Assembly (NCBI GenBank): GCA_030648205.1
Contig: JAUSIH010000046.1
Coordinates: 1,370-65,369 of the forward strand
Origin: Dehalococcoidia bacterium
Lineage (GTDB): Bacteria > Chloroflexota > Dehalococcoidia > JAUSIH01
Length of the DNA: 64,000 bases
Reading direction: 5' to 3'
This document shows positions 7,688-26,533 of the stretch, piece after piece; the stretch's first letter is position 1, and each line of letters opens with the position of its first letter. The translations under genes were made by a program, and so were the position numbers. The notes beneath the pieces are model-generated. The model was not told the DNA's origin. It saw nothing but the letters and a program-made list of their open reading frames with translations, and did no database searches.

Positions 7688-8590
7688 TTAGGACCGCAGG
7701 CGGGGGTCGAGAATATCCCGCAGCCCGTCGCCCAGCATATTGAAGGCGAAAACCGTCAGGCTGATGGCTATGCCGGGGAAGATGGCGAGCCAGGGGGCCT
7801 GAGTCACGAACTGGCCTCCCTCGCCGGCCAGCATGCTGCCCCAACTGGGGGCCGGAGGCGGAATACCCAGGCCCAGGACGCTCAACGACGCCTCCACCAG
7901 GATGGCGTGGGGGAGCTCGACGCTGGCGATGACGATGAATGGGGCCAGGGTCTGCGGCAGCACGTGGCGGAAGACGATGCGCCAGTCGTCGGCGCCGATG
8001 GCCCGTGCAGCGTCCACAAAGGCCAGGCTGCGTACGGCGATGGTGGCGGCGCGGGCCACGCGCGCTGTGCGCGGTGTCTGCACAATGGCGATGGCGAGGA
8101 TGATGTTCTCAACGCTGGGGCCCAGGGCCGCCACCAGCATGAGGCCCAGGATGAGGGTGGGGAACGCCATCAGCGCGTCCATGATCCGTTGGATGGCCAC
8201 GTCTAGCTTTCCGCCGAAGTAGCCGCTGAGGATGCCGATGATCCCTCCCGCCGTCTGTCCCAGCGCCACCGCCAGAATGCCCACGTACAGAGATATGCGC
8301 GTGCCGTAAATGACGCGGCTCATGACATCGCGTCCCAGGTGGTCGGTGCCCCAGTAGTAGGTCAGGCCGGGAGGGACGAGGCGGGCATCGTAGTGGAGAG
8401 CCAGCGGGTTGTAGGGGGAGATGAGCGAGGCGAAGATGGCGGTCAGCCCCAGCACGACGACGATGGCCGCGCCCGCGGCGGCCAGAGGTTTCGTCCGGGC
8501 GAACCGCCGCGCGAAGGCCGCGGCCTGCCCGGCGCGGGACGGCCTGTAGGCGGGGCTGGCTTGTGTTGTGAATGCCTCTTGCGCTGGCAT
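7688..8590 (-). CDS. ABC transporter permease (peptide/nickel family, DppC/OppC-like)
   Basis: Six predicted TM segments and the EAA-like loop SLAFVDAARAIGADDWRIVFRHVLP. The C-terminus has the GDGLRDILDPRLR motif. Confidence 0.85.
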   Translation of the reverse strand: MPAQEAFTTQASPAYRPSRAGQAAAFARRFARTKPLAAAGAAIVVVLGLTAIFASLISPYNPLALHYDARLVPPGLTYYWGTDHLGRDVMSRVIYGTRISLYVGILAVALGQTAGGIIGILSGYFGGKLDVAIQRIMDALMAFPTLILGLMLVAALGPSVENIILAIAIVQTPRTARVARAATIAVRSLAFVDAARAIGADDWRIVFRHVLPQTLAPFIVIASVELPHAILVEASLSVLGLGIPPPAPSWGSMLAGEGGQFVTQAPWLAIFPGIAISLTVFAFNMLGDGLRDILDPRLRS

Positions 8591-8601
8591 ACGTCACTCC
8601 G

Positions 8602-9564
8602 CTAGCGCAGGTGGACGCGCGGGTCTATGTAGCCGTACAGGATGTCCACGGCCAGGTTTATCACGATGATGATGGCGGCGAACACGACGATGATGTTTTG
8701 GACCAGCGGAAAGTCCTTGGCGGAGATGGCCTGGACAAGCGCCCGGCCAATCCCCGGCACGGAGAATATCTGCTCCATGATGACCGTGCCCCCGAGCAGC
8801 ACGGCGTATTGGAGGCCTACGACGGTGACCACGGGCAGCAGCGCGTTGCGGATGGCGTGCCGCGCCACCACCAATGTCTCGGGCAGGCCCTTGGCCCAGG
8901 CGGTGCGCACGTAGTCCTGCCGGAGCACCTCCAGCATCTGGGAGCGGGTCATGCGGCTGACGGTGGCGGTGAAGTAGTAGGCCAGCGCCAGCACGGGCCA
9001 GATGACTTGCTGGGCGTTGGTCAGCGGGTCCTGGACCAGATCGGCGTAGGCCAGGGGAGGAAGCCAGTGGAACCCGATGGACAGGACCAGGATGACGAGC
9101 GTGCCAGACCAGAAGGTGGGCATGGCCAGTCCGCCGATGCTGATGATCCGCGCGAGATAGTCAATCCACGTGTCCTGCCGGATGGCCGATATCACGCCCA
9201 GGGGAACGGCGACCAGGATAGCTATCAGCATGGTGAAAGTGGCCAGCTCAATAGTCACGGGCAGGCGTTGGGTGATTTCCTCCAGCACAGGCGTGTTGAA
9301 ACGCAGTGACGTGCCCCAGTCCAGACGCACAAGCCCCCACACCCAGTCGAAGTATTGCTTGGGCAGAGGGTCGTTCAGGCCGAGCTGTTTCCGGAGGGCG
9401 TCAATCTGCTCCTGCGGAACGGAGGCCGGGTTGTCGCTCAGGCCGGCCAGGACGATGCGCGCCACGTCTCCGGGCAGGACGCGCATGACCGCGAAGATGA
9501 TGAGGGAGACCAGGACGAGGGTCAAAACTCCGCTCAGGAGGCGTGTAATAACGTATCTATGCAT
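8602..9564 (-). CDS. ABC transporter permease (peptide/nickel family, DppB/OppB-like)
   Basis: The N-terminus is MHRYVITRLLSGVLTLVLVSLIIFAVMRVLPGD. The EAA region is YVRTAWAKGLPE and the C-terminus is YGYIDPRV. Confidence 0.85.
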   Translation of the reverse strand: MHRYVITRLLSGVLTLVLVSLIIFAVMRVLPGDVARIVLAGLSDNPASVPQEQIDALRKQLGLNDPLPKQYFDWVWGLVRLDWGTSLRFNTPVLEEITQRLPVTIELATFTMLIAILVAVPLGVISAIRQDTWIDYLARIISIGGLAMPTFWSGTLVILVLSIGFHWLPPLAYADLVQDPLTNAQQVIWPVLALAYYFTATVSRMTRSQMLEVLRQDYVRTAWAKGLPETLVVARHAIRNALLPVVTVVGLQYAVLLGGTVIMEQIFSVPGIGRALVQAISAKDFPLVQNIIVVFAAIIIVINLAVDILYGYIDPRVHLR

Positions 9565-15686: not shown

Positions 15687-16907
15687 TTAATTCCCCCAGC
15701 TCGGATTGTTGTCTTCCTTGGGATTATTGGTGAGGCGTGTCTGGGCGGAACCGTCGGCGTTCATGACGTAAATCTCGTAGTTCCCGTCCCGAATGGAAGT
15801 GAAGACAATCTTGCTCCCGTCCGGGGACCAGGCACAGTAGTCGTCCCGGTTGAAGTTGGGCATGAGTGTGGTCTGGCCAGTGCCGTCTGCGTTCATGACG
15901 CTAACCCCCTCGTTGTTAATGAAGGCAATCTTCCTGCCATCGGGCGACCAGGAGGGCCACGAAGACCCGCTGCGAGTCTGGGTGAGGGCGGTCTGGCTGG
16001 AGCCGTCGGCGTTCATGACGTAAATCTGGGCGTTCCCGCCCCGATCGGAGGTGAAGGCGATTTTGCTCCCGTCCGGGGACCAGGCCGCTTTGTAGTCATT
16101 GGCGCTATTGAAGGTGAGCCTAGTTTGGTTGGAGCCGTCGGCGTTCATCACGTATATCTCGTTGTTGCCGTCACGGTTGGACTGGAAGGCGATCTTGCTG
16201 CCGTTGGGCGACCAGGCTGGGTTGTTGTCATTGGCGCTATTGAAGGTGAGCCTAGTTTGGTTGGAGCCATCGGCGTTCATCACGTACATCTCGTAGTTGC
16301 CTTCACGGTTGGACGCAAACAGAATGCGGCCAGCCAGAGGTGCGGGCGTTGGGGTGGGAGTAACCGTTGGCGTTGGTGTGGTGGTCGGTGTGGGCGTCAT
16401 GGTCGGCGTTGGCGTGACCGTGGGCGTAGCCGTAGGCGTCCACGTTGGCGTCACCGTCGGCGTATAGGTCGGCGTCGGCGTGGGTGTCGGGGTAGGGGTA
16501 AGTGTGGCCGTCGCCGTGGGCGTCAAAGTCGGCGTTGGGGTATAGGTTGGCGTGGGTGTAATGGTCGGGGTTGGCGTGGGCGTAATGGTAGGCGTTGGTG
16601 TTGGAGTATAAGTTGGCGTGGACGTGATGGTTGGAGTAGGCGTCCACGTGGGCGTAACCGTGGGCGTGGACGTTGGCGTCGCTGTCGCCGGCGTAGGGGG
16701 TATCGGCGTCGCTGTGGGTGCAGGCGTGTGTGTGGCTGTGGGCGCTTGTGTTGGCGTGGGCGGAGGCATTAGCGTAAAAGTGGAACTGGGTGTAACGGTG
16801 GGCACTGGCGTCACCGCAGGAGAGAACCGAGATGTCAATACTATCCCGATCAGAGCTACAATGATGCCTACTCCCGCCCAACCTTTCCAACCCAACCAAT
16901 TGGACAA
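15687..16907 (-). CDS. membrane-anchored TolB-like beta-propeller (PD40 repeat) protein with a long Pro-Thr repeat linker
   Basis: N-terminal TM anchor, a ~150-aa PT-rich linker (PTPTxT repeats), then repeated blades of the form [15 protein letters not shown]...[11 protein letters not shown]. Confidence 0.75.
16096..16322. repeat. intragenic duplication: two ~95-bp near-identical copies (3-4 mismatches) 132 bp apart within the beta-propeller coding region
   Basis: tcattggcgctattgaaggtgagcctagtttggttggagcc[g/a]tcggcgttcatcacgta[t/c]atctcg... begins at both 16096 and 16228. The protein shows two identical blade segments [21 protein letters not shown]. Confidence 0.7.
16322..16790. repeat. degenerate short tandem repeats (6-18 nt units, GGCGTxGGxGTx) encoding the Pro-Thr linker
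   Basis: Visible periodic ggcgtgggcgt / ggtgtgggcgt units on the + strand. They correspond to the PTPTxT repeats of the minus-strand protein. Confidence 0.7.
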
Positions 16908-17127: not shown

Positions 17128-17457
17128 TCATTCAGCGCATCCCGTTATGGCGAGCCAACTACCTTCGGGGAGTATATCAGGAAGGCGAGGCTGGAGATAA
17201 GCTCTCCGCAGCTTTATCACCCCATCCCTCGTGGCCTGCACTGCAGCGCCTCCGCCAGGCCTGCCGTGATCCTTCCGGTACCGGAAGGACGAACGATGCG
17301 CGGCCTGGATTGCCTCCGCGCCGGACAGGTCGGCGATTGGGATGGTTGTACGAGTGTGGGTTGATAGATTGATCCAGATCTCGTGGTCGCCTTTCGCTTT
17401 GCGGTCAAGCTCGCACCCCAGCCCTCGCAACCTCCGCGTAAGCTCTCGGTAGTTCAC
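17128..17457 (-). CDS. HicA-family toxin (mRNA interferase) with an atypical C-terminus that reads into a duplicated comM 3' fragment
   Basis: The first 40 aa (MNYRELTRRLRGLGCELDRKAKGDHEIWINLSTHTRTTIP) match the HicA/YcfA-like fold. The following IADLSGAEAIQAAH... is encoded by DNA near-identical to the 3' end of comM (18305-18390). Confidence 0.55.
   Translation of the reverse strand: MNYRELTRRLRGLGCELDRKAKGDHEIWINLSTHTRTTIPIADLSGAEAIQAAHRSSFRYRKDHGRPGGGAAVQATRDGVIKLRRAYLQPRLPDILPEGSWLAITGCAE
17205..17345. repeat. degenerate duplicate of the last ~85 bp of comM (two matching blocks of 41 bp and 26 bp separated by a 54-bp substitution)
   Basis: tcaccccatccctc[gt]ggcctg[c]actgcagcgcctccgcca ... 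gcctccgcgccgga[c]aggtcggc[g]at matches 18308-18390. The alternative frame ends in ...AEALQCRPRGMG*, compared with comM ...AEALQYRPRGMG*. Confidence 0.65.
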
Positions 17458-17717
17458 GCCGCGACAAGCACCTCGCTCGGGATGCCTTTACCGCCCACGT
17501 CAACAGACGTGTCTTCAATCTCCCTGGGAAGGGGGTCCCCTTTGGACTTGTACGACTCGATGAAGGCCGTAGCCACGCTTTGCAAGTTGCCCAGAGCGTC
17601 GGCGGCGGTATCCCCCCACGCGCGGCAGCCGGGGAGTAGGGGGACTTCAGCCAGGTATTTGCCCTCGGTCTCCCTGGTAGGTTCGTGCATTATGATGGGC
17701 AATTTGTACAGCTTCAT
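17454..17717 (-). CDS. HicB-family antitoxin (UPF0150, RNase H-like fold)
   Basis: YLAEVPLLPGCRAWGDTAADALGNLQSVATAFIE matches the HicB N-domain signature. It overlaps hicA by 4 bp. Confidence 0.7.
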   Translation of the reverse strand: MKLYKLPIIMHEPTRETEGKYLAEVPLLPGCRAWGDTAADALGNLQSVATAFIESYKSKGDPLPREIEDTSVDVGGKGIPSEVLVAA

Positions 17718-17724
17718 ACTGGTC

Positions 17725-17943
17725 TCACGCCTCTACAGCAACATACTCAGCCCTGGTGCGTGGCTCGGGTACGGGTAGCTTGTCCTCGATAAGACTTTGC
17801 ACATGGAACTCAATGGCTTCACGCATGTTTCGTAGCACTTCTTTCGGCGTGTCCCCAACCGCCACGCATCCAGGGATATCCGGCGAGTAGGCAGAGTAGT
17901 TTCCGTCTGCCTTCTCAGCAACAATCAAATACCGACGTGTCAT
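17725..17943 (-). CDS. second HicB-like antitoxin paralog (UPF0150)
   Basis: YSAYSPDIPGCVAVGDTPKEVLRNMREAIEFHVQSL; 72 aa. Confidence 0.65.
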   Translation of the reverse strand: MTRRYLIVAEKADGNYSAYSPDIPGCVAVGDTPKEVLRNMREAIEFHVQSLIEDKLPVPEPRTRAEYVAVEA

Positions 17944-18304: not shown

Positions 18305-19831
18305 TCACCCCATCCCTCTCGGCCTGTACTGCAGCGCCTCCGCCACGTGGACGACACCAATCGCCTCCGCGCCGGAGAGGTCGGCTATCGTCCGCGCCAG
18401 CTTAAGGATGCGGTGGAAGGCCCGCGCCGACAGGTGCAGTTGCTTCATGGCCGCCTGCAGCAGTCCCTTGGTCGGCGTGTCCATCTGGCAGTGCTGGCGC
18501 ACCTCCATCGCCGTCATATCCGCGTTCGCCAGGACGCTCCGCGAGGTGGAGTAGCGCCGCCTCTGGACCTCCCGCGCCGCCTCGACCCGCGCCCGCACCG
18601 TCGCCGAGCCTTCGCCGGAGCGGTCGTCCACCAGCTTCTCGTACTCGACGCGCGGCACCTCGACGAACATGTCTATGCGGTCGAGGAGCGGCCCGCTGAT
18701 GCGCTTCTGGTAGCGCGAGACCAGGCTGGCGGCGCAGGTGCAGGGCTTGAGGGGGTCGCCGTAGTAGCCGCAGGGGCAGGGGTTCATCGCCGCCACCAGC
18801 ATGAAGCTCGCGGGGAACGTGACCGTGCCCTGGGCGCGGCTGATGGTCACCACGCGGTCCTCCATCGGCTGGCGCAGCACCTCCAGCACGTTGTGCCCGA
18901 ACTCCGGCAGCTCGTCCAAGAACAGCACGCCGCGATGGGCCAGGCTGATCTCACCCGGATGGGGCTGCCGTCCGCCGCCGACGAGTCCCGCGTGCGAGAT
19001 GGTGTAGTGCGGCGAGCGGAAGGGGCGCTGCGTCACGAGGGGCGTGTCCGAGGGCAGAAGGCCGCTGACGCTGTAAATTTTGGTGACCTCCAGCGCCTCG
19101 TCCATCGTCATCTTGGGCAGGACGGCGGCAAGGGCGCGCGCAAGGAGGGTCTTGCCACTGCCCGGCGGGCCGCTCATCAGGAGGTTGTGCCCGCCCGCCG
19201 CCGCGATCTCCAGCGCCCGCTTGGCGTGCTCCTGCCCCTTGATGTGCGCCAGGTCCGCTCCGCTCGGCCCGTCGTCCACGGCTGGCGGCGGTCCTTCCGC
19301 GGAAGAATAGGGCGCGATGGACGCCTCTCCCCGAAGGTGCGCCACCAACTCGGTCAGCGCGCCCACGGGCAGAATTGTCAGGTGGTCCACCAGAGATGCC
19401 TCTCTGGCGTCGGATGCGGGGGCGTACACGGTTCGGATGCCCTGCTGGCGGGCCAGCGCCACCATAGGCAGAATGCCTTGTGTATGACGCACGCCGCCGT
19501 CCAGCGACAGCTCACCCAGGAACAGCGTCTCCGTCGCGTCGAACGCCACCTGCCCGGAGCTGAGCAGAATGCCGATGGCGATTGGCAGGTCATAGGCGGG
19601 GCCTTCCTTCTTGAGGTCGGCGGGGGCCAGGTTGACCGTGATGCGCTTGAGGGGGAACTCGCAGCCGGAGTTGCGGATGGCGGCGCGGACGCGCTCCTTG
19701 GCCTCCTGCACCGCCATATCCGGCAGGCCGACGATGGTGAAGCTGGGCAGCCCCGGCGAGATGTCCACCTCCACCTCGACGATGGCGCCGTCCATCCCCA
19801 CGATGGCGCAACTCCGGACCTTTGCAAGCAT
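18305..19831 (-). CDS. comM: YifB/ComM family Mg-chelatase-like AAA+ ATPase
   Basis: N-terminal Lon-like domain, Walker A LLMSGPPGSGKT, the CPCGYYGDPLKPCTC zinc motif and a C-terminal ...RILKLARTIADLSGAEAIGVVHVAEALQYRPRG. Confidence 0.9.
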   Translation of the reverse strand: MLAKVRSCAIVGMDGAIVEVEVDISPGLPSFTIVGLPDMAVQEAKERVRAAIRNSGCEFPLKRITVNLAPADLKKEGPAYDLPIAIGILLSSGQVAFDATETLFLGELSLDGGVRHTQGILPMVALARQQGIRTVYAPASDAREASLVDHLTILPVGALTELVAHLRGEASIAPYSSAEGPPPAVDDGPSGADLAHIKGQEHAKRALEIAAAGGHNLLMSGPPGSGKTLLARALAAVLPKMTMDEALEVTKIYSVSGLLPSDTPLVTQRPFRSPHYTISHAGLVGGGRQPHPGEISLAHRGVLFLDELPEFGHNVLEVLRQPMEDRVVTISRAQGTVTFPASFMLVAAMNPCPCGYYGDPLKPCTCAASLVSRYQKRISGPLLDRIDMFVEVPRVEYEKLVDDRSGEGSATVRARVEAAREVQRRRYSTSRSVLANADMTAMEVRQHCQMDTPTKGLLQAAMKQLHLSARAFHRILKLARTIADLSGAEAIGVVHVAEALQYRPRGMG

Positions 19832-19856: not shown

Positions 19857-20318
19857 TCAGGCTATCTGGACGACGGCTTCGACCTCGACGGGCGTGTTGT
19901 GGTACAGAGTGTACACGCCCACCGCCGAGCGCGTATGGCGGCCCGCCTCGCCGAACGCCTGGGTGATGAGATCGGAGAACCCGTGCAGGACCGCGGGCGT
20001 ATTGTGGAACCCGGGGGCGCAGTTGATGAAGCCCAGGACCTTGACCCAGCGATGGATTCTGTCCAGGTCGCCCAGGTAGCCCTTGAGCGTGCCCAGCATG
20101 GCGACTCCCGTCAGCCGCGCTGCCTCGTAGCCCTGCTCCAGGGTCAGCTCGCCGCCAACCTTGCCCGTGACCAGCGGCTTGATGTTCGCGTCGAAGGGGC
20201 CGTGGCCGCTGACGTACACCAGCTTGTCCACGGTGACGCACCGCACCCGGTTCGGCGCGTCCTGCCACGCTGAGGGAAGGACGATGCCCATCTCGCGCAA
20301 ACGCTCTTCGACAACCAT
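19857..20318 (-). CDS. ridA: RidA/YjgF/TdcF family reactive-intermediate (enamine/imine) deaminase
   Basis: YVSGHGPF...GELTLEQGYEAARLTGVAMLGTLK...SAVGVYTLYHNTPVEVEAVVQI. The start was chosen at MVVEER. Confidence 0.8.
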   Translation of the reverse strand: MVVEERLREMGIVLPSAWQDAPNRVRCVTVDKLVYVSGHGPFDANIKPLVTGKVGGELTLEQGYEAARLTGVAMLGTLKGYLGDLDRIHRWVKVLGFINCAPGFHNTPAVLHGFSDLITQAFGEAGRHTRSAVGVYTLYHNTPVEVEAVVQIA

Positions 20319-20331
20319 GCGACACACCTCC

Positions 20332-20371
20332 GCGGACTGCGACCCGCCCCATTATAGCCGCGACGCCGCCT
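20332..20371 (-). promoter_or_regulatory. 40-bp direct-repeat copy 1, carrying a perfect TATAAT -10 hexamer on the minus strand ~35 bp upstream of the ridA start
   Basis: cgcggactgcgacccgccccattatagccgcgacgccgcc. Its reverse complement contains ggcTATAATgg. Confidence 0.45.
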
Positions 20372-20446
20372 GATGCAGGACATTGCGGCTGTACCGAGTG
20401 CTAACGGAGCATACTCGTTTAGTTTCCTTTTCTTCCTAACACGCCA

Positions 20447-20677
20447 CTAAGACCTCGGACGTTTGAGGTACAGCTCACAGCGTATTGCTGTGCGAGTTAT
20501 CAAGCTTAGTGTGCCAGTTAGCTCCCATCCTTGCTCGCCCAGGGTATTCAATAAGGGGCCGGGGTTGTACCAGTCACCGCCGGGACCTCTTACTTTTTCG
20601 AACTTCCCCGAACGCCCGTTGCTATCAACCCAATTAGATTCGTAGACCACGATGACCAAGTACTCCCACTTTTGCAT
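20447..20677 (-). CDS. DUF4177-like small protein
   Basis: 76 aa beginning MQKWEYLVIVVYESNW..., typical of DUF4177 (MxKWEYKVV...). The coding region is markedly lower in GC than its flanks. Confidence 0.55.
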   Translation of the reverse strand: MQKWEYLVIVVYESNWVDSNGRSGKFEKVRGPGGDWYNPGPLLNTLGEQGWELTGTLSLITRTAIRCELYLKRPRS

Positions 20678-20713
20678 AGTACTCCTCTCTCGTCACCTAC
20701 CCTTTAGCCAAAG

Positions 20714-20753
20714 CGCGGACTGCGGCCCGCCCCATTATAGCCGCGACGCCGCC
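20714..20753 (-). promoter_or_regulatory. 40-bp direct-repeat copy 2 (1 mismatch to copy 1), carrying a TATAAT box ~58 bp upstream of the DUF4177 gene start
   Basis: cgcggactgcggcccgccccattatagccgcgacgccgcc. Confidence 0.45.
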
Positions 20754-20804
20754 ACTTCTCCATCGGGCGCAGGCGCTATACTCAAGGTGCGGGAAAGGAG
20801 CGCA

Positions 20805-21545
20805 ATGCCGTTCACCACGGATGTCCAGACGATGACCAGAACGGGCATGGAGCGCCTTCTGGACCAGATGGAGGGCCCCGGCCTTGGACGGGTGACACTC
20901 TACCTTCCGCCCGCGTCTCTCCTCGCTATCCGGACGCTGCTCGCCGGGGCGGACCCCGAACTGGCCGACGAGGTGGCGCGCAAGGCCGACGACACGTGGT
21001 CGGGCGCGGCGGTGTTCCTGTCCGCCGACCAGGCGTATATCGTCGCGCCTCCATTCCCCATCCGTGCCGAGAGTCGCAGCGACGGCTGGGACGGCGCGCC
21101 GCTGCGCGCGCTCTTCGCTCGGCGCTATCTCCTGGGCGTGGTGCTCCTGAGGCTGGGGGCGTACGCCGTCGGCGTGCTGGACGGCGACGAGATGGTCGTC
21201 TCCAAGGCGGACACGCGCTACGTGAAGGGCAAGCACCACGCGGGCGGGTGGTCGCAGCAGCGCTTCGCGCGTAGACGTGAGAAGCAGATGCGCGAGCTGT
21301 TTGACGAGGCGTGCGAGGTGGCGCGTGACTGTCTGGCGCCCTACGAGCGGCGGCTGGACTACATATTCCTCGGCGGTGAGAGGTTGACGCTGCTGGCTTT
21401 CCGCAAGCGGTGTCCCTATCTGGAGAGGCTCGCCGAGAAGATAGCGCCGCGCATTCTTGAGGTGGAGCGGCCCAACCGCGGGGCGCTGGAAGGCATCCCC
21501 CGCGAGGTCTGGAAGTGCCGCGTCACCCTGTTCCGGCGGGCGTGA
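20805..21545 (+). CDS. putative Vms1/ANKZF1-like (VLRF1 family) release-factor-fold peptidyl-tRNA hydrolase domain protein; hypothesis, otherwise a conserved hypothetical protein
   Basis: SD aaggag is 7 nt upstream of the ATG at 20805. Basic motif KGKHHAGGWSQQRFARRREKQMRELF (a GxxQ followed by RFxRRRE), which I recall as the VLRF1 catalytic loop. No other recognisable domain. Confidence 0.4.
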   Translation: MPFTTDVQTMTRTGMERLLDQMEGPGLGRVTLYLPPASLLAIRTLLAGADPELADEVARKADDTWSGAAVFLSADQAYIVAPPFPIRAESRSDGWDGAPLRALFARRYLLGVVLLRLGAYAVGVLDGDEMVVSKADTRYVKGKHHAGGWSQQRFARRREKQMRELFDEACEVARDCLAPYERRLDYIFLGGERLTLLAFRKRCPYLERLAEKIAPRILEVERPNRGALEGIPREVWKCRVTLFRRA

Positions 21546-21560
21546 CGGGCGAGGACGCCG

Positions 21561-24500
21561 CTACCTGCGGGAACCGCGCGACTCCACGGGCTCCGGGGCC
21601 TCTCCAAAGTGCCCGGGCGCTGCCCGACCTTGCCCGTGGCCGCGCAGTCGCTCCAGGAATTCATCCATGATGGAGTAGACCACAGGTACGACTATCAGGG
21701 TCAGGATGGTGGACGTGATAAGCCCGCCGATCACGGCCAGGCCCATGGGCTGACGCAACTCCGAGCCCGCGCCAAGGCCGAGCGCCAGAGGCAACATGCC
21801 CATGATCATGGCGGCCGTCGTCATGAGGATGGGCCGGAGCCGGATAGGGCCTGCGGTGAGCAGGGCTTCCCCGCGGGGCATTCCTCGACTTCGCAGCGTG
21901 TTCGTGTAGTCCACGAGCAGGATGGAGTTCTTCGCCACGAGGCCCATGAGCAGGATGATGCCGATCATCGCCATCATGCTGATGGGGAATCCCGCGGCGA
22001 ACAGAAGGCCCAGCGCGCCCACGCCCGCCAGCGGCAGGGCTGCCATGATGACCAGGGGCTGGGTGAAGGAGCCGAACTCGGACGCCAGGATCATGTACAC
22101 GAAGAGGACGGAGAGGCCCAGAGCCATGAGCAGGCTGCTGAACGTTTCGCCGAGCTGCTCTGACTGGCCGAATGGGACAATGCGCACGCCGGCGGGCAGA
22201 GGCATCTCCCGAAGCGCCTGCTGAAGGTCGCTGACGGCCTCGCTCAGCGACTGGCTGCCAAAGTTGGCGGATATGACGACCTGACGCTCGCGGTTTTCCC
22301 TGTCTATGCGGCCGGGGCCTGTGGCCGGCGCGATGGTGGCGACGCTCGCAAGGCGGACCGTGCCGCCCCCGGGAGTGGCGACGGGAATAGCCAGGATGGC
22401 GTCCTCTTGCTGCCTGTCCTGGGCGCGCAACTGGACGGTTATATCTATATCTTCGTCCGGACCGCGGAGCTTGGAGATGGCGTCTCCATTGACCAGCGTA
22501 CGCAGCGTTGTGGCTACGGCGGCCGGGGAGAGGCCCACTTCCGACGCGCGGTCCTGGTCCACCAGCACTCGCAGTTCCGGCTTCCCGAGCCGGAGGCTGG
22601 AGGCGACGTCAGTGAAGCCTCGCCCGTTCTCCTTCAGCCGAGCCATGACGGTGTCGGCAGCGCGGCTCAGGTCGTTCACGTCGCTGCCGCGCAGGGCCAC
22701 CTGGACGACCTTGCTGCCAAATGTGCTCAGACTGCTGGACCCGGCGCCCAGGGACTCCTCCCCCAGCGGAGAGATGTTGGTGCGCGCGTTCGCCAGATCG
22801 GGCCACGTCGCAAACTCCTTGCGGAGGCGGTTCAAAGGCGGGAAGGCGTGGCCGATGCCGGTCGTGACGAAGAAGTTTGCTTTCTCCCCCTCCGTGCTCG
22901 ACGAGCCGCTCGCGAACGCGCCGCCGCCGACAGTGGTGTAGACCACCTTGACCTCGGGTTGCGCCCTGATCACGGACTCCATCTTCCGGGCCACGGTGTC
23001 AGTCTGGGCAAGGGCTGTGCCCGAGGGCAACTCCACGGACACGTAGAAGAAGCCCCTGTCTATCTGCGGCTGGAGCTCGCTGCCCATGAGGGGTATCAGG
23101 ACGATCGCCATGACGAACGACGCGAGTCCGATGCCGAGCACGAGCGGCCGGTGGCCGAGCGCCCAGCGCAGGACGGGCTTGTAGAGGCCTTCGGCTCGGT
23201 CGTACACTCTGCCCCAGGCCGCCAGCAGCGGGGCCTCCCGGCGCTTGCCCTCGATCCGGCGGAAGAAGAACGTGGAGAGCATGGGCGCAAGGGTCAACGC
23301 CTCCAGCAAGGACAGGAGGACGGCCACGGCCACCACCAGCCCGAACTGGTTCAGGAACCGGCCCACCAGGCCCGTGGTCAGGGTGATGGGGAAGAAGACC
23401 GCCACGATGACCAGGGATACCGCTATCACGGCACGGGCTATCTCCGCCGTGCCGAGTTTTGCGGCGGTCCGCGGGTCCTCGCCCTGCTCCATGTGGCGGA
23501 AGATGTTCTCGCGGACGACGATGGCGTCGTCAATGAGGAGGCCGACCACCAGGGAGAGGGCCAGGAGGGTCACCATGTTCAGGGTGAAGCCCATCAGGTA
23601 GATCGCGCCGAAGGTGGCCACGATGACGATGGGGAGGCCGATCACTGTAATCAGTGTGTTGCGCAGGTCTCGGAAGAACAGGAAGACGACAAAGGCGGCG
23701 GCTAGCCCTCCGATAATCAGGCTGCGGTAGAGGTCGTCATTGAAGGTGCGGACGTTCGTGGACTGGTCGAAGACCGAGAAGACGTCCATGTCCGTTCGGT
23801 CTTGCTGAATGCGGGCCATTTCCTTGAGGGCGGCGTCTGCCACACGGACGGTGTTGGTCCCTGACTGTTTGTGGATGGCAAGGCTGACGGCTTCCTGCCC
23901 GTTGATGCGGGTTATACTCCGCGCTTCTTTGACGCCCTCGCGCACATCCGCTATGTCGCCAAGCCGGACGGGAGCGCCCTCGGCGCCGCCTGCCACGACC
24001 AGGGCGCGCAGGTCGTCCACGCTGTGGAACTCGCTGGCGGTCCGCAGCAACAACTCGCGCTGGCCCTGGGTGACGCGCCCGGCGGGCAGGCTCAGGTTGT
24101 TGGCCTGGATGGCGCGGACCACCTGCTCCACGGGGATGTTGTACGCGGCCAGCTTGGTCGCGTACAGGTCGACCAGCACCTGCTTCTCGCGCCCGCCGGA
24201 GATGGTCGCGGCGGCCACGCCGGGCACGCGCTCAAAGCGAGGCTTGATGTCGTCGTCCACCAGCTTTCGGAGGTCCGCCGGATTGCGGCCCTGCCTGTCC
24301 CGGATGCCGACGGTCATGATGGGCAGGGATGCCAGGTCGAACCGCTTGATGACCGGCTCCTGGACGCCATCCGGGAGGCTGCGCCGGACCGTGGCCAGCC
24401 GCTCGCGCACGTCCGCGGAGGCCTGACGCGCGGCGTAGTCCATGTTGAACTCAAGGGTGACCACGGATACGCCTTCCTGGGATGTCGACCGGATGGCCTC

Positions 24501-24725
24501 GATATAGTTCAGGGAGGCGAAGGCGTCCTCAAGCGGCTTGGACACGTCCCGCTCAACGTCCTCGGCGGAGGCGCCCGGGTAAACCGTCTGGACGACGACC
24601 ACGGGGACGGAGATGTCCGGCAGTAGGTCAAGGCCTGTTTGAAAGAAAAACACCGTACCCATGACGAGCACGGTGAGGACGCACATGGTGATGAAAACCG
24701 GCGCGCGTATTGCCAGGTTCCACAT
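21561..24725 (-). CDS. efflux RND transporter permease subunit (HAE1/AcrB family)
   Basis: 1054 aa with 12 TM segments and two large periplasmic loops. AcrB-like motifs include the PFFFRRIEG region and LLMGLVAKNSILLVDY. Confidence 0.9.
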   Translation of the reverse strand: MWNLAIRAPVFITMCVLTVLVMGTVFFFQTGLDLLPDISVPVVVVQTVYPGASAEDVERDVSKPLEDAFASLNYIEAIRSTSQEGVSVVTLEFNMDYAARQASADVRERLATVRRSLPDGVQEPVIKRFDLASLPIMTVGIRDRQGRNPADLRKLVDDDIKPRFERVPGVAAATISGGREKQVLVDLYATKLAAYNIPVEQVVRAIQANNLSLPAGRVTQGQRELLLRTASEFHSVDDLRALVVAGGAEGAPVRLGDIADVREGVKEARSITRINGQEAVSLAIHKQSGTNTVRVADAALKEMARIQQDRTDMDVFSVFDQSTNVRTFNDDLYRSLIIGGLAAAFVVFLFFRDLRNTLITVIGLPIVIVATFGAIYLMGFTLNMVTLLALSLVVGLLIDDAIVVRENIFRHMEQGEDPRTAAKLGTAEIARAVIAVSLVIVAVFFPITLTTGLVGRFLNQFGLVVAVAVLLSLLEALTLAPMLSTFFFRRIEGKRREAPLLAAWGRVYDRAEGLYKPVLRWALGHRPLVLGIGLASFVMAIVLIPLMGSELQPQIDRGFFYVSVELPSGTALAQTDTVARKMESVIRAQPEVKVVYTTVGGGAFASGSSSTEGEKANFFVTTGIGHAFPPLNRLRKEFATWPDLANARTNISPLGEESLGAGSSSLSTFGSKVVQVALRGSDVNDLSRAADTVMARLKENGRGFTDVASSLRLGKPELRVLVDQDRASEVGLSPAAVATTLRTLVNGDAISKLRGPDEDIDITVQLRAQDRQQEDAILAIPVATPGGGTVRLASVATIAPATGPGRIDRENRERQVVISANFGSQSLSEAVSDLQQALREMPLPAGVRIVPFGQSEQLGETFSSLLMALGLSVLFVYMILASEFGSFTQPLVIMAALPLAGVGALGLLFAAGFPISMMAMIGIILLMGLVAKNSILLVDYTNTLRSRGMPRGEALLTAGPIRLRPILMTTAAMIMGMLPLALGLGAGSELRQPMGLAVIGGLITSTILTLIVVPVVYSIMDEFLERLRGHGQGRAAPGHFGEAPEPVESRGSRR

Positions 24726-25161: not shown

Positions 25162-25344
25162 ATGTCTGTAGTAAGCCTTCGCGACGGAGAGACTCAAGAG
25201 AGTCTGCTCAAGCGTTTCACCAGCATGATCCAGCGCTCCGGCATCCTGCGCGAGGCGAAACGGAAGCGCTACTTTGTATCCAAGGGTGAGACGGCCCGCG
25301 AGAAGCACCGCCGCGCCGCCCGCCGTCGCCGCCTGCGCGTCTAG
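25162..25344 (+). CDS. rpsU: 30S ribosomal protein S21
   Basis: MSVVSLRDGETQESLLKRFTSMIQRSGILREAKRKRYFVSKGETAREKHRRAARRRRLR: the full-length S21 signature with its basic C-terminal tail. Confidence 0.9.
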   Translation: MSVVSLRDGETQESLLKRFTSMIQRSGILREAKRKRYFVSKGETAREKHRRAARRRRLRV

Positions 25345-26458: not shown

Positions 26459-26533
26459 GCGGGGGTAATTCAGTGGTAGAATGCCACCCCTCCAAGGTGG
26501 ACGTCGCGGGTTCGAATCCCGTCCCCCGCTCCA
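26459..26533 (+). tRNA. tRNA-Gly (anticodon UCC)
   Basis: Manual cloverleaf: acceptor stem GCGGGGG/CCCCCGC, D-arm attc-agtggta-gaat, anticodon arm ccacc-cctccaa-ggtgg (anticodon TCC), T-arm gcggg-ttcgaat-cccgt, discriminator U73 and an encoded CCA. G1-C72, C2-G71, G3-C70 and U73 are Gly identity elements. Confidence 0.8.

Follow-up and report, generated by a model that had tools for sequence, protein, structure and literature searches.

The stretch of DNA studied here, hereafter the window, comprises 64,000 nucleotides of one contig (JAUSIH010000046.1) in the assembly of a Dehalococcoidia bacterium (GCA_030648205.1). It carries on its forward strand a gene whose 246-amino-acid product is almost certainly a member of acVLRF1, the Actinobacteria/Chloroflexi branch of the Vms1-like clade within the aeRF1 superfamily. 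The protein is ordinary and well conserved, and it belongs, as a stand-alone protein, to a family that has been curated and named already. Judging from gene order, acVLRF1 and MutS2 form an operon in most related Chloroflexota/Dehalococcoidia. This linkage supports a role for the family in the codon-independent release of nascent chains after ribosomes are split.

The family assignment relies on two curated models. PF18859 (acVLRF1) matched residues 110-241 over profile positions 3-130 of 130, with E=1.7e-35 and a score of 122.5 bits, where the gathering threshold (GA) is 27.1, and the NCBIfam model NF041024 ("acVLRF1 family peptidyl-tRNA hydrolase") gave 142.4 bits against a cutoff of 125. 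Related models scored less: Pfam baeRF_family10 overlapped the acVLRF1 match with 59 bits, Pfam eRF1_2 covered residues 111-193, and TIGR03676, the aRF1/eRF1 equivalog model, reached 51.4 bits, far under its cutoff of 234.7. The Pfam models eRF1_1 and eRF1_3 had no match, and the 246 residues contain no Pfam domains other than those of the aeRF1 type. In the source databases, homologues are labelled 'acVLRF1 family' or 'Vms1/Ankzf1 family peptidyl-tRNA hydrolase'. An earlier note, made from the sequence alone, had proposed a release-factor fold like that of Vms1/ANKZF1 (VLRF1). The fold is borne out by PF18859, NF041024, eRF1_2, and the structural matches to aRF1/eRF1 and to Vms1 on the 60S subunit described below. 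The model the note had named, PF18826 (bVLRF1), gave no match to the window protein even at E<=10; the one that does match, PF18859, stands for its sister family.

The family acVLRF-1 was defined computationally by Burroughs & Aravind 2019 (PMC6514570) by a GGxSQ motif, a 'distinctive short extension' at the N terminus, the loss of the domain that binds the stop codon, and a distribution in Actinobacteria/Chloroflexi. The window protein shows all the defining sequence features: scores above the profile cutoffs, the GGxSQ motif, the Arg-rich helix, the domain losses, and Chloroflexi hosts. Its relatives in 80 genome loci, with 36-54% identity, all come from Dehalococcoidia, SAR202 or Chloroflexota metagenome-assembled genomes. 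Sequence searches return thousands of homologues. When 1.84 billion representatives were scanned exhaustively with HMMER, the clusters at 50% identity numbered 219 for E<=1e-30, 856 for E<=1e-10, and 1420 for E<=1e-3; the best 150 matches are all about 150-290 residues long. At 90% identity there are at least 1283 clusters of homologues. The family is thus modest in size, but not rare in Chloroflexota, and the earlier view that bacterial homologues are rare has to be corrected.

The open reading frame (ORF) is a real, functional-looking gene under purifying selection. It runs from an ATG at 20805 to a stop codon at 21543-21545, and its GC content at third codon positions (GC3), 0.83, is similar to that of the other genes of the window. 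Relative to the 91%-identical orthologue in the groundwater metagenome contig L081, the ratio of nonsynonymous to synonymous substitution rates (dN/dS) is 0.19 (dS 0.28, dN 0.053), and the catalytic loop is identical in the two proteins. The gene is single-copy and vertically conserved. A mechanical list of ORFs had given a longer frame starting at 20652, which we rejected because 91%-identical homologues begin at the equivalent of 20805 and because the sequence 5' of 20805 derives from an insertion/duplication that is specific to the window when compared with the orthologous loci. Upstream of the ATG, a TATACT and a Shine-Dalgarno-like GGAAAGGAG are both kept in the orthologous loci L081 and L082. 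A consensus scan found no full sigma-70 promoter on the forward strand, and the TATACT is a putative promoter element read from the sequence.

Residues 141-159 read KGKHHAGGWSQQRFARRRE, exactly as the earlier note had quoted them, with its GxxQ at G148-W-S-Q151 and its RFxRRRE as RFARRRE; a second glutamine, Q152, is also present. In an alignment of 76 homologues (40-91% identity), eight positions do not vary at all (H144, G147, G148, S150, R153, F154, R156, and R158), and the conservation of Q151 is at least 90%. The window protein has the family signature H-x-x-G-G-x-S-Q-x-R-F-x-R-x-R intact. The three invariant arginines lie at the start of a helix (149-180) that follows three strands. Other conserved motifs are PPFP (residues 82-85) and GGE (residues 190-192).

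The loop also lines up residue for residue with the GGQ loop of aRF1: GGW-SQ-QRFARRR in the window protein against GGQ-SQ-RRYER in 3agk and GGQ-SA-QRFARLR in 4af1. From this alignment, it reads as an aRF1-type GGQSQ/GGQSA loop with its first glutamine replaced. Where the canonical GGQ motif has its glutamine, the window protein has Trp and most members have Ser; the conserved glutamine stands two residues downstream. At the same time, G148-W-S150-Q151 fits the G-x-u-Q pattern of Vms1-type proteins, where u is a tiny residue (definition from PMC6514570). The resemblance to the Vms1 catalytic loop proposed in the earlier note holds for the pattern; the sequence is nearer to the GGQ-type loop of aRF1. 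Among 266 retrieved proteins, the loop is GGSSQ in 132, GGQSQ in 41, GGSSA in 23, GGTSQ in 20, GGWSQ in 18, GGSSS in 7, GGQSA in 4, and GGRSQ in 3. The type found in the window, GGWSQ, is a minority one (18 of about 250 representatives). Read as sequences, the loops of the family span the state of eRF1 (GGQSA), a double-Gln state also present in aRF1 (GGQSQ), and a shifted state (GGxSQ). The natural series GGQSA, GGQSQ, GGxSQ, GGSSA bears on the positioning of the catalytic glutamine.

A confident AlphaFold2 model built from the 76-homologue alignment has a mean predicted local distance difference test score (pLDDT) of 92.5 and a predicted TM-score (pTM) of 0.87. Its N-terminal part is a small alpha/beta unit (strands 3-10, 30-34, 68-72, 76-81, and 90-93; helices 12-22, 36-45, and 51-61). 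The core has strands at 109-116, 119-126, and 129-137, then the loop, then the long helix 149-180, an order that in the model corresponds to the topology of the eRF1 M domain. Residues 141-150 have the lowest pLDDT (63), as would be expected for a flexible loop of the GGQ type. The core's last strand closes the protein (residue 246), which has no C-terminal domain.

Foldseek searches of the PDB with this model matched aRF1/eRF1 at E=7e-11 to 1e-8, Balon (8rdv_B at 1.6e-7, and 8v9k_z), and Pelota/Dom34. Yeast Vms1 bound to the 60S subunit (6r84_R) was found at E=1.1e-4 with probability 1.00 and the top query TM-score of the list (0.47), and further Vms1 matches were 5whg (E=4e-4) and 6r87_R (root-mean-square deviation 5.1 A over 190 columns). 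By E-value aRF1/eRF1 outscore Vms1. The core superposes on 8hku_ARF1 at 2.8 A over 125 columns and on 4crm_X at 3.6 A over 136 columns. When the PDB was searched by sequence, with the single protein and with a family profile, aRF1/eRF1 were found and no Vms1 chain was; the best profile matches were archaeal aRF1 (3agk, E=2.8e-18; 4af1, E=7.6e-18). Hence, the window protein is nearer to archaeal aRF1 than to Vms1 by sequence. The profile alignment to aRF1 starts at residue 6 (aRF1 residue 7 onward) and runs through the N-terminal part, with a gap of 18-22 residues precisely at the NIKS-type segment of aRF1 (...TDNIKLKRTR / ...ASNIKSKQTR). In consequence, the 'distinctive extension' of the family looks like a reduced N domain without the codon-reading element, and not like an unrelated extension.

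To study the genomic context of the family, we called ORFs in the 80 loci, which come from species-representative genomes, clustered the neighbours, and confirmed MutS2 by tblastn. One cluster of neighbours of about 830 residues, on the same strand and downstream of acVLRF1, is MutS2 (MutS_V, MSSS SH3, and Smr domains). It lies directly downstream in 71 of the 80 loci, or 71/78 when the two of the nine exceptions that are contig ends are set aside. The distance between the matches is at most 260 nt in 60 of the 71 loci, and the gap is 22-52 nt where the alignment to MutS2 begins at its residue 1. The pair stays together while its flanks change: neighbour clusters number 29 upstream and 33 downstream, 61 loci show 49 architectures, and the pairwise identity of acVLRF1 is 37-98% (median 50%). 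Linkage was also found in two further metagenomic contigs: MutS2 is adjacent in L085 (6001-9290), and in L087 it is encoded 3 kb downstream, on the strand of acVLRF1. The account given in PMC6514570 is that prokaryotic VLRF-1 proteins are stand-alone and independent of the components of ribosome-associated quality control (RQC); in contrast, most relatives in Dehalococcoidia are in an operon with MutS2. That article has no mention of MutS2 or Smr, and a MutS2 paper co-authored by Burroughs and Aravind has no text on gene neighbourhoods or VLRF. A full-text search of the literature searchable here returned no paper linking MutS2 with acVLRF1 or Vms1-type proteins, and within that literature the operon may be unreported.

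We consider it moderately likely that acVLRF1 is a catalytic nascent-chain release factor in ribosome rescue. On a stalled ribosomal particle it would bind at the A-site side, with no need for a codon or a GTPase, and its Gln-bearing loop would be inserted into the peptidyl-transferase centre. The nascent chain would then be severed from the P-site tRNA, either by ester hydrolysis, as by eRF1, or by cutting the 3' CCA end of the tRNA, as reported for Vms1/ANKZF1. A loss of codon reading and of GTPase coupling is suggested by the gap at the NIKS segment, by the lack of eRF1_1 and eRF1_3, and by the position of the M-like domain at the end of the protein. Because most related Chloroflexota have the gene in an operon with MutS2, which senses collisions and splits ribosomes, the likeliest substrate would be the 50S-peptidyl-tRNA complex that remains after a collided or stalled ribosome is split. 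That acVLRF1 acts specifically after splitting is a tentative proposal, to which we would give slightly less than an even chance. Since the window copy is monocistronic and unlinked to MutS2, the assignment of this substrate would carry over to it by homology only. Similarly tentatively, acVLRF1 could be a dedicated termination factor of bacterial RQC: MutS2 would split the ribosome, and the co-transcribed acVLRF1 would enter the vacant 50S A site and release the chain.

Several observations weigh against this reading. The window copy is not beside MutS2, and tblastn searches of the whole 64 kb found neither MutS2 nor RsmI. In a neighbour-joining tree, the window protein and that of locus L002 form a small clade unlinked to MutS2, and the same is true of the sister clade L050/L053/L056/L072, which has GGQSA loops. 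The family is also placed in Actinobacteria (PMC6514570), where mutS2 and rqcH were each found in 0/3,213 genomes, as compared with 35/41 and 26/41 genomes of Chloroflexota, respectively (PMC11633108). Considering its presence in a phylum that lacks both genes, the family cannot depend strictly on MutS2. Moreover, much of the linkage could be due to common descent inside one class, Dehalococcoidia. As to the activity, that of a peptidyl-tRNA hydrolase seems to be implied by nothing but the name of the family, a full-text literature search for the name acVLRF1 found no paper, and the literature disagrees on whether the proteins of the Vms1 type are hydrolases or tRNA nucleases (PMC6514570). Finally, Gln is missing from both loop positions in around 12% of the representatives (GGSSA 23 and GGSSS 7 of about 250), and the loop of P0002, a relative with 91% identity to the window protein, reads GGWSEQ. 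For these reasons, the catalytic role of Q151 is not proven, and caution is needed before it is taken as the essential residue. Examples with variant loops or loops without Gln include L050, L053, L056, and L072 (genes at about 8000-8700), as well as P0128, P0161, and P0253.

Part of this evidence would fit a different mode of action, in which acVLRF1 is a single-component rescue factor like ArfB that works on intact 70S ribosomes with an empty A site, in non-stop or no-go situations, and not on split 50S subunits. Such a factor would account for the unlinked window gene, for the two unlinked subclades, and for the occurrence of the family in Actinobacteria, which lack mutS2 and rqcH. The retained, reduced N domain, which is homologous to the domain of aRF1 that occupies the decoding site, could fill an empty decoding centre. 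However, the tight operon in 71/78 related loci is better explained by an action after splitting, the protein ends with its catalytic domain and lacks the basic C-terminal tail with which ArfB probes the mRNA channel, and Vms1, the closest characterised relative by clade, acts on 60S subunits (6r84_R). We regard this alternative as unlikely.

Even less probable is a non-catalytic binder of the A site, either a hibernation factor like Balon or a protein like Dom34/Pelota, that would not cleave peptidyl-tRNA. The structural matches to Balon and Pelota/Dom34, the 59 bits of baeRF_family10, and the representatives devoid of Gln at both positions are all in line with it. Yet the motif GG-x-S-Q-x-RF-x-R-x-R is invariant or nearly so, and the window protein has both Q151 and Q152, whereas the inactive baeRF-1 families are poorly conserved in the loop (PMC6514570). 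Furthermore, no link to an HPF gene was seen in the roughly 90 loci examined, and there is no C-terminal domain for the binding of EF-Tu, unlike in Balon.

The earlier note had suggested looking for RqcH, ribosome-rescue or toxin contexts around the homologues. No RqcH, toxin or defence context was found, and the informative context turned out to be MutS2 in the related loci. That acVLRF1 might be a toxin or antiphage component targeting tRNA or ribosomes is highly improbable: links to conflict systems are on record for some aeRF1 and bRF families (PMC6514570), and small inserted cassettes, HicAB among them, lie near the window gene, but PADLOC defence models had no match, no relative turned up when 2.9 million viral contigs were scanned with the family alignment, the contexts are stable housekeeping ones (MutS2, RsmI, MetRS, ComM, RidA), the gene is conserved as described above, and the HicAB and 76-residue cassettes are separate insertions, the latter not in L081/L082.

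The relatives of the window protein have a few other contexts. In four contigs (L084, L086, L089, and L090), acVLRF1 follows rsmI, the gene of the 16S rRNA C1402 2'-O-methyltransferase, on the same strand, with a gap of 3 bp in L086 and L090 and with the gene of methionyl-tRNA synthetase (MetRS) nearby in two of the four (L084 and L086). These relatives are relatively close to the window protein, belong to another lineage of Chloroflexota, and in two cases have the same GGWSQQRFARRRE motif. As a molybdopterin oxidoreductase gene lies upstream in all four, which share a single synteny block, they are probably one inherited block and count as about one observation. We searched the clades unlinked to MutS2 for alternative conserved partners and found none related to the ribosome. 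Upstream of acVLRF1 in the GGQSA clade there are only metabolic genes (Gfo/Idh/MocA-like, enolase-superfamily), and these have nothing in common with the neighbourhood in the window. Two loci unlinked to MutS2 (L034 6191-7884 and L072 8793-10109) have acVLRF1 beside genes of AAA/ABC-type ATPases that resemble, by eye, OLD/abortive-infection ATPases, with a small partner gene in L034 too. This pairing is not conserved across loci.

In the window, the acVLRF1 gene is monocistronic, and its flanks are as the earlier note had described them, a cassette with a 40-nt direct repeat upstream and a convergent AcrB-family pump of the resistance-nodulation-division (RND) type downstream (Table 1). The same arrangement, with a divergent RidA/YjgF-family gene on one side and the convergent pump on the other, is found in L081 and L082, both of them groundwater metagenome contigs. 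Relative to these contigs, the window has an insertion of 383 bp (about 20371-20713) bounded by the direct repeat. The ORF of 76 codons within it, which has no match in Pfam or PADLOC, is missing from L081/L082, which still carry acVLRF1. Within the repeat there is a perfect TATAAT on the minus strand (TGGAGA-17-TATAAT, 20762->20734), so the promoter on the RidA side appears to have been duplicated, with one copy for each minus-strand gene.

A second small cassette inserted with target duplication, HicAB, lies less than 3 kb from the 383-bp insertion. It is edged by a duplicated tail of comM, in which 17217-17257 matches 18305-18345 at 93% and 17309-17337 matches 18360-18388 at 90%. The match to HicA covers only profile positions 1-38 of 58, and the ORF continues into the duplicated comM sequence. 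The periodic repeat at 16510-16767 probably encodes a low-complexity repetitive protein segment. An Rfam scan of the window found no transfer-messenger RNA (tmRNA). The arrangement of the genes for ribosomal protein S21 and enoyl-CoA hydratase is common to the window and L081. Neither ComM, RidA, the RND pump, S21, nor the 76-residue ORF occurs near acVLRF1 in the 80 genome loci. A paralogue of the enoyl-CoA hydratase is alone in recurring there, at about 35% identity, which is too weak for orthologous synteny.

Table 1. Features of the acVLRF1 gene and its surroundings in the window, and example loci of relatives on other contigs
Feature	Location	Strand	Remarks
acVLRF1 coding sequence (246 aa and stop)	20805..21545	+	ORF, PF18859, NF041024, dN/dS
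Reduced aeRF1 N-domain remnant, about residues 1-97	20805..21095	+	without NIKS segment; profile alignment, AlphaFold2 model; putative
Catalytic RNase H-fold core (eRF1 M-domain-like), about residues 98-246	21096..21542	+	Pfam, AlphaFold2, Foldseek
Catalytic loop and start of Arg-rich helix, residues 141-159	21225..21281	+	KGKHHAGGWSQQRFARRRE; homologue and aRF1 alignments
GGWSQ, residues 147-151	21243-21257	+	
Shine-Dalgarno-like GGAAAGGAG	20792-20800	+	read from sequence, ahead of ATG 20805
-10-like TATACT, putative promoter element	20777-20782	+	read from sequence
40-nt direct repeat, two copies	20331-20370 and 20714-20753		1 mismatch; upstream of acVLRF1
76-aa ORF	20447..20677	-	inside the 383-bp insertion; GC3 0.61 (lower)
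RidA/YjgF-family gene	19857..20327	-	divergent from acVLRF1
AcrB-family RND pump gene	21561..24725	-	convergent; 15 bp between its end and the acVLRF1 stop
comM/yifB	18305..19831	-	
HicA/HicB/HicB toxin-antitoxin cassette	17128..17943	-	adjoins 3' end of comM/yifB
Degenerate periodic repeat, GTNGGNGT-rich	16510-16767		66-nt units overlapping at 18/24-nt spacing; within long ORF region
Ribosomal protein S21 gene	25162-25344	+	3.6 kb downstream of acVLRF1, past the RND pump
tRNA gene	26459-26530	+	sole Rfam match in the window
Example linked locus	L051 7968-11019		acVLRF1 then MutS2
rsmI-acVLRF1 loci	L084 4926-6564; L086 5161-6750; L089 2546-4208; L090 4107-5750		

The window gene itself is routine, and the NCBI annotation pipeline would name it already. 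The release step, in contrast, is the least understood part of bacterial RQC; the one factor implicated in it in B. subtilis is Pth, a general enzyme. The operon of acVLRF1 and MutS2, found across diverse Dehalococcoidia, provides a concrete and testable candidate for a dedicated release factor, and a simple two-protein system for the dispute on the hydrolase or tRNA-nuclease action of Vms1-type enzymes. If the proposal of a dedicated termination factor is true, the two genes of the pair would make up a 'split and release' module that corresponds in prokaryotes to the eukaryotic Vms1 step and is possibly its evolutionary forerunner. This module might work without Ala-tailing by RqcH, and the unlinked copies of the window and of Actinobacteria would act downstream of other splitters or of the spontaneous dissociation of subunits.

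Compared with acVLRF-1 as a family (PF18859/NF041024), the window protein shares the GGxSQ loop, the Arg-rich helix, the loss of stop-codon reading, and the lack of a C-terminal domain; the variable position of its loop is Trp, of the minority type. Vms1/ANKZF1 (eVLRF-1), the nascent-chain release factor of RQC, is of the same superfamily and has the same fold (6r84_R, 5whg, 6r87_R). The two have in common the G-x-tiny-Q pattern, which is GWSQ in the window protein, and an architecture independent of codons and GTPases. Relatives of the window protein are genetically linked to a factor that generates split large subunits (MutS2), whereas the window copy is not. There is, however, no match between acVLRF1 and Vms1/ANKZF1 at the level of sequence (PF18826, search of the PDB with the family profile). 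In addition, acVLRF1 is devoid of the Rei1 zinc finger, the ankyrin repeats, and the VIM and treble-clef domains, and keeps a di-glycine that Vms1 does not have.

The closest solved relatives by sequence are aRF1/eRF1 (3agk, 4af1), whose loop, H-x-x-GG-Q/x-S-Q/A-x-RF-x-R, is almost superimposable in sequence with that of acVLRF1. The latter differs in failing the cutoff of TIGR03676, in the deletion of the NIKS region, in the lack of a C domain, and in having GGW instead of GGQ. Balon and baeRF-1 are, like acVLRF1, bacterial proteins that belong to the aeRF1 superfamily, and their folds match at around 1e-7. Proteins of the Balon type have flanking domains, bind EF-Tu, and are associated with HPF/RaiA; acVLRF1 has none of these, is single-domain, and keeps a conserved loop of the catalytic type.

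The job proposed for acVLRF1, release of the chain without a stop codon, is like that of ArfB, and like that of Pth after MutS2/RqcH/RqcP in the RQC of B. subtilis, with which the proposal shares MutS2 as an upstream component. The folds are unrelated, since ArfB has the GGQ domain of bacterial release factors and Pth the peptidyl-hydrolase fold. As a general enzyme, Pth depends on Ala-tailing for the exposure of the ester bond (PMC11633108), whereas acVLRF1 would be dedicated to the task and would insert into the A site.

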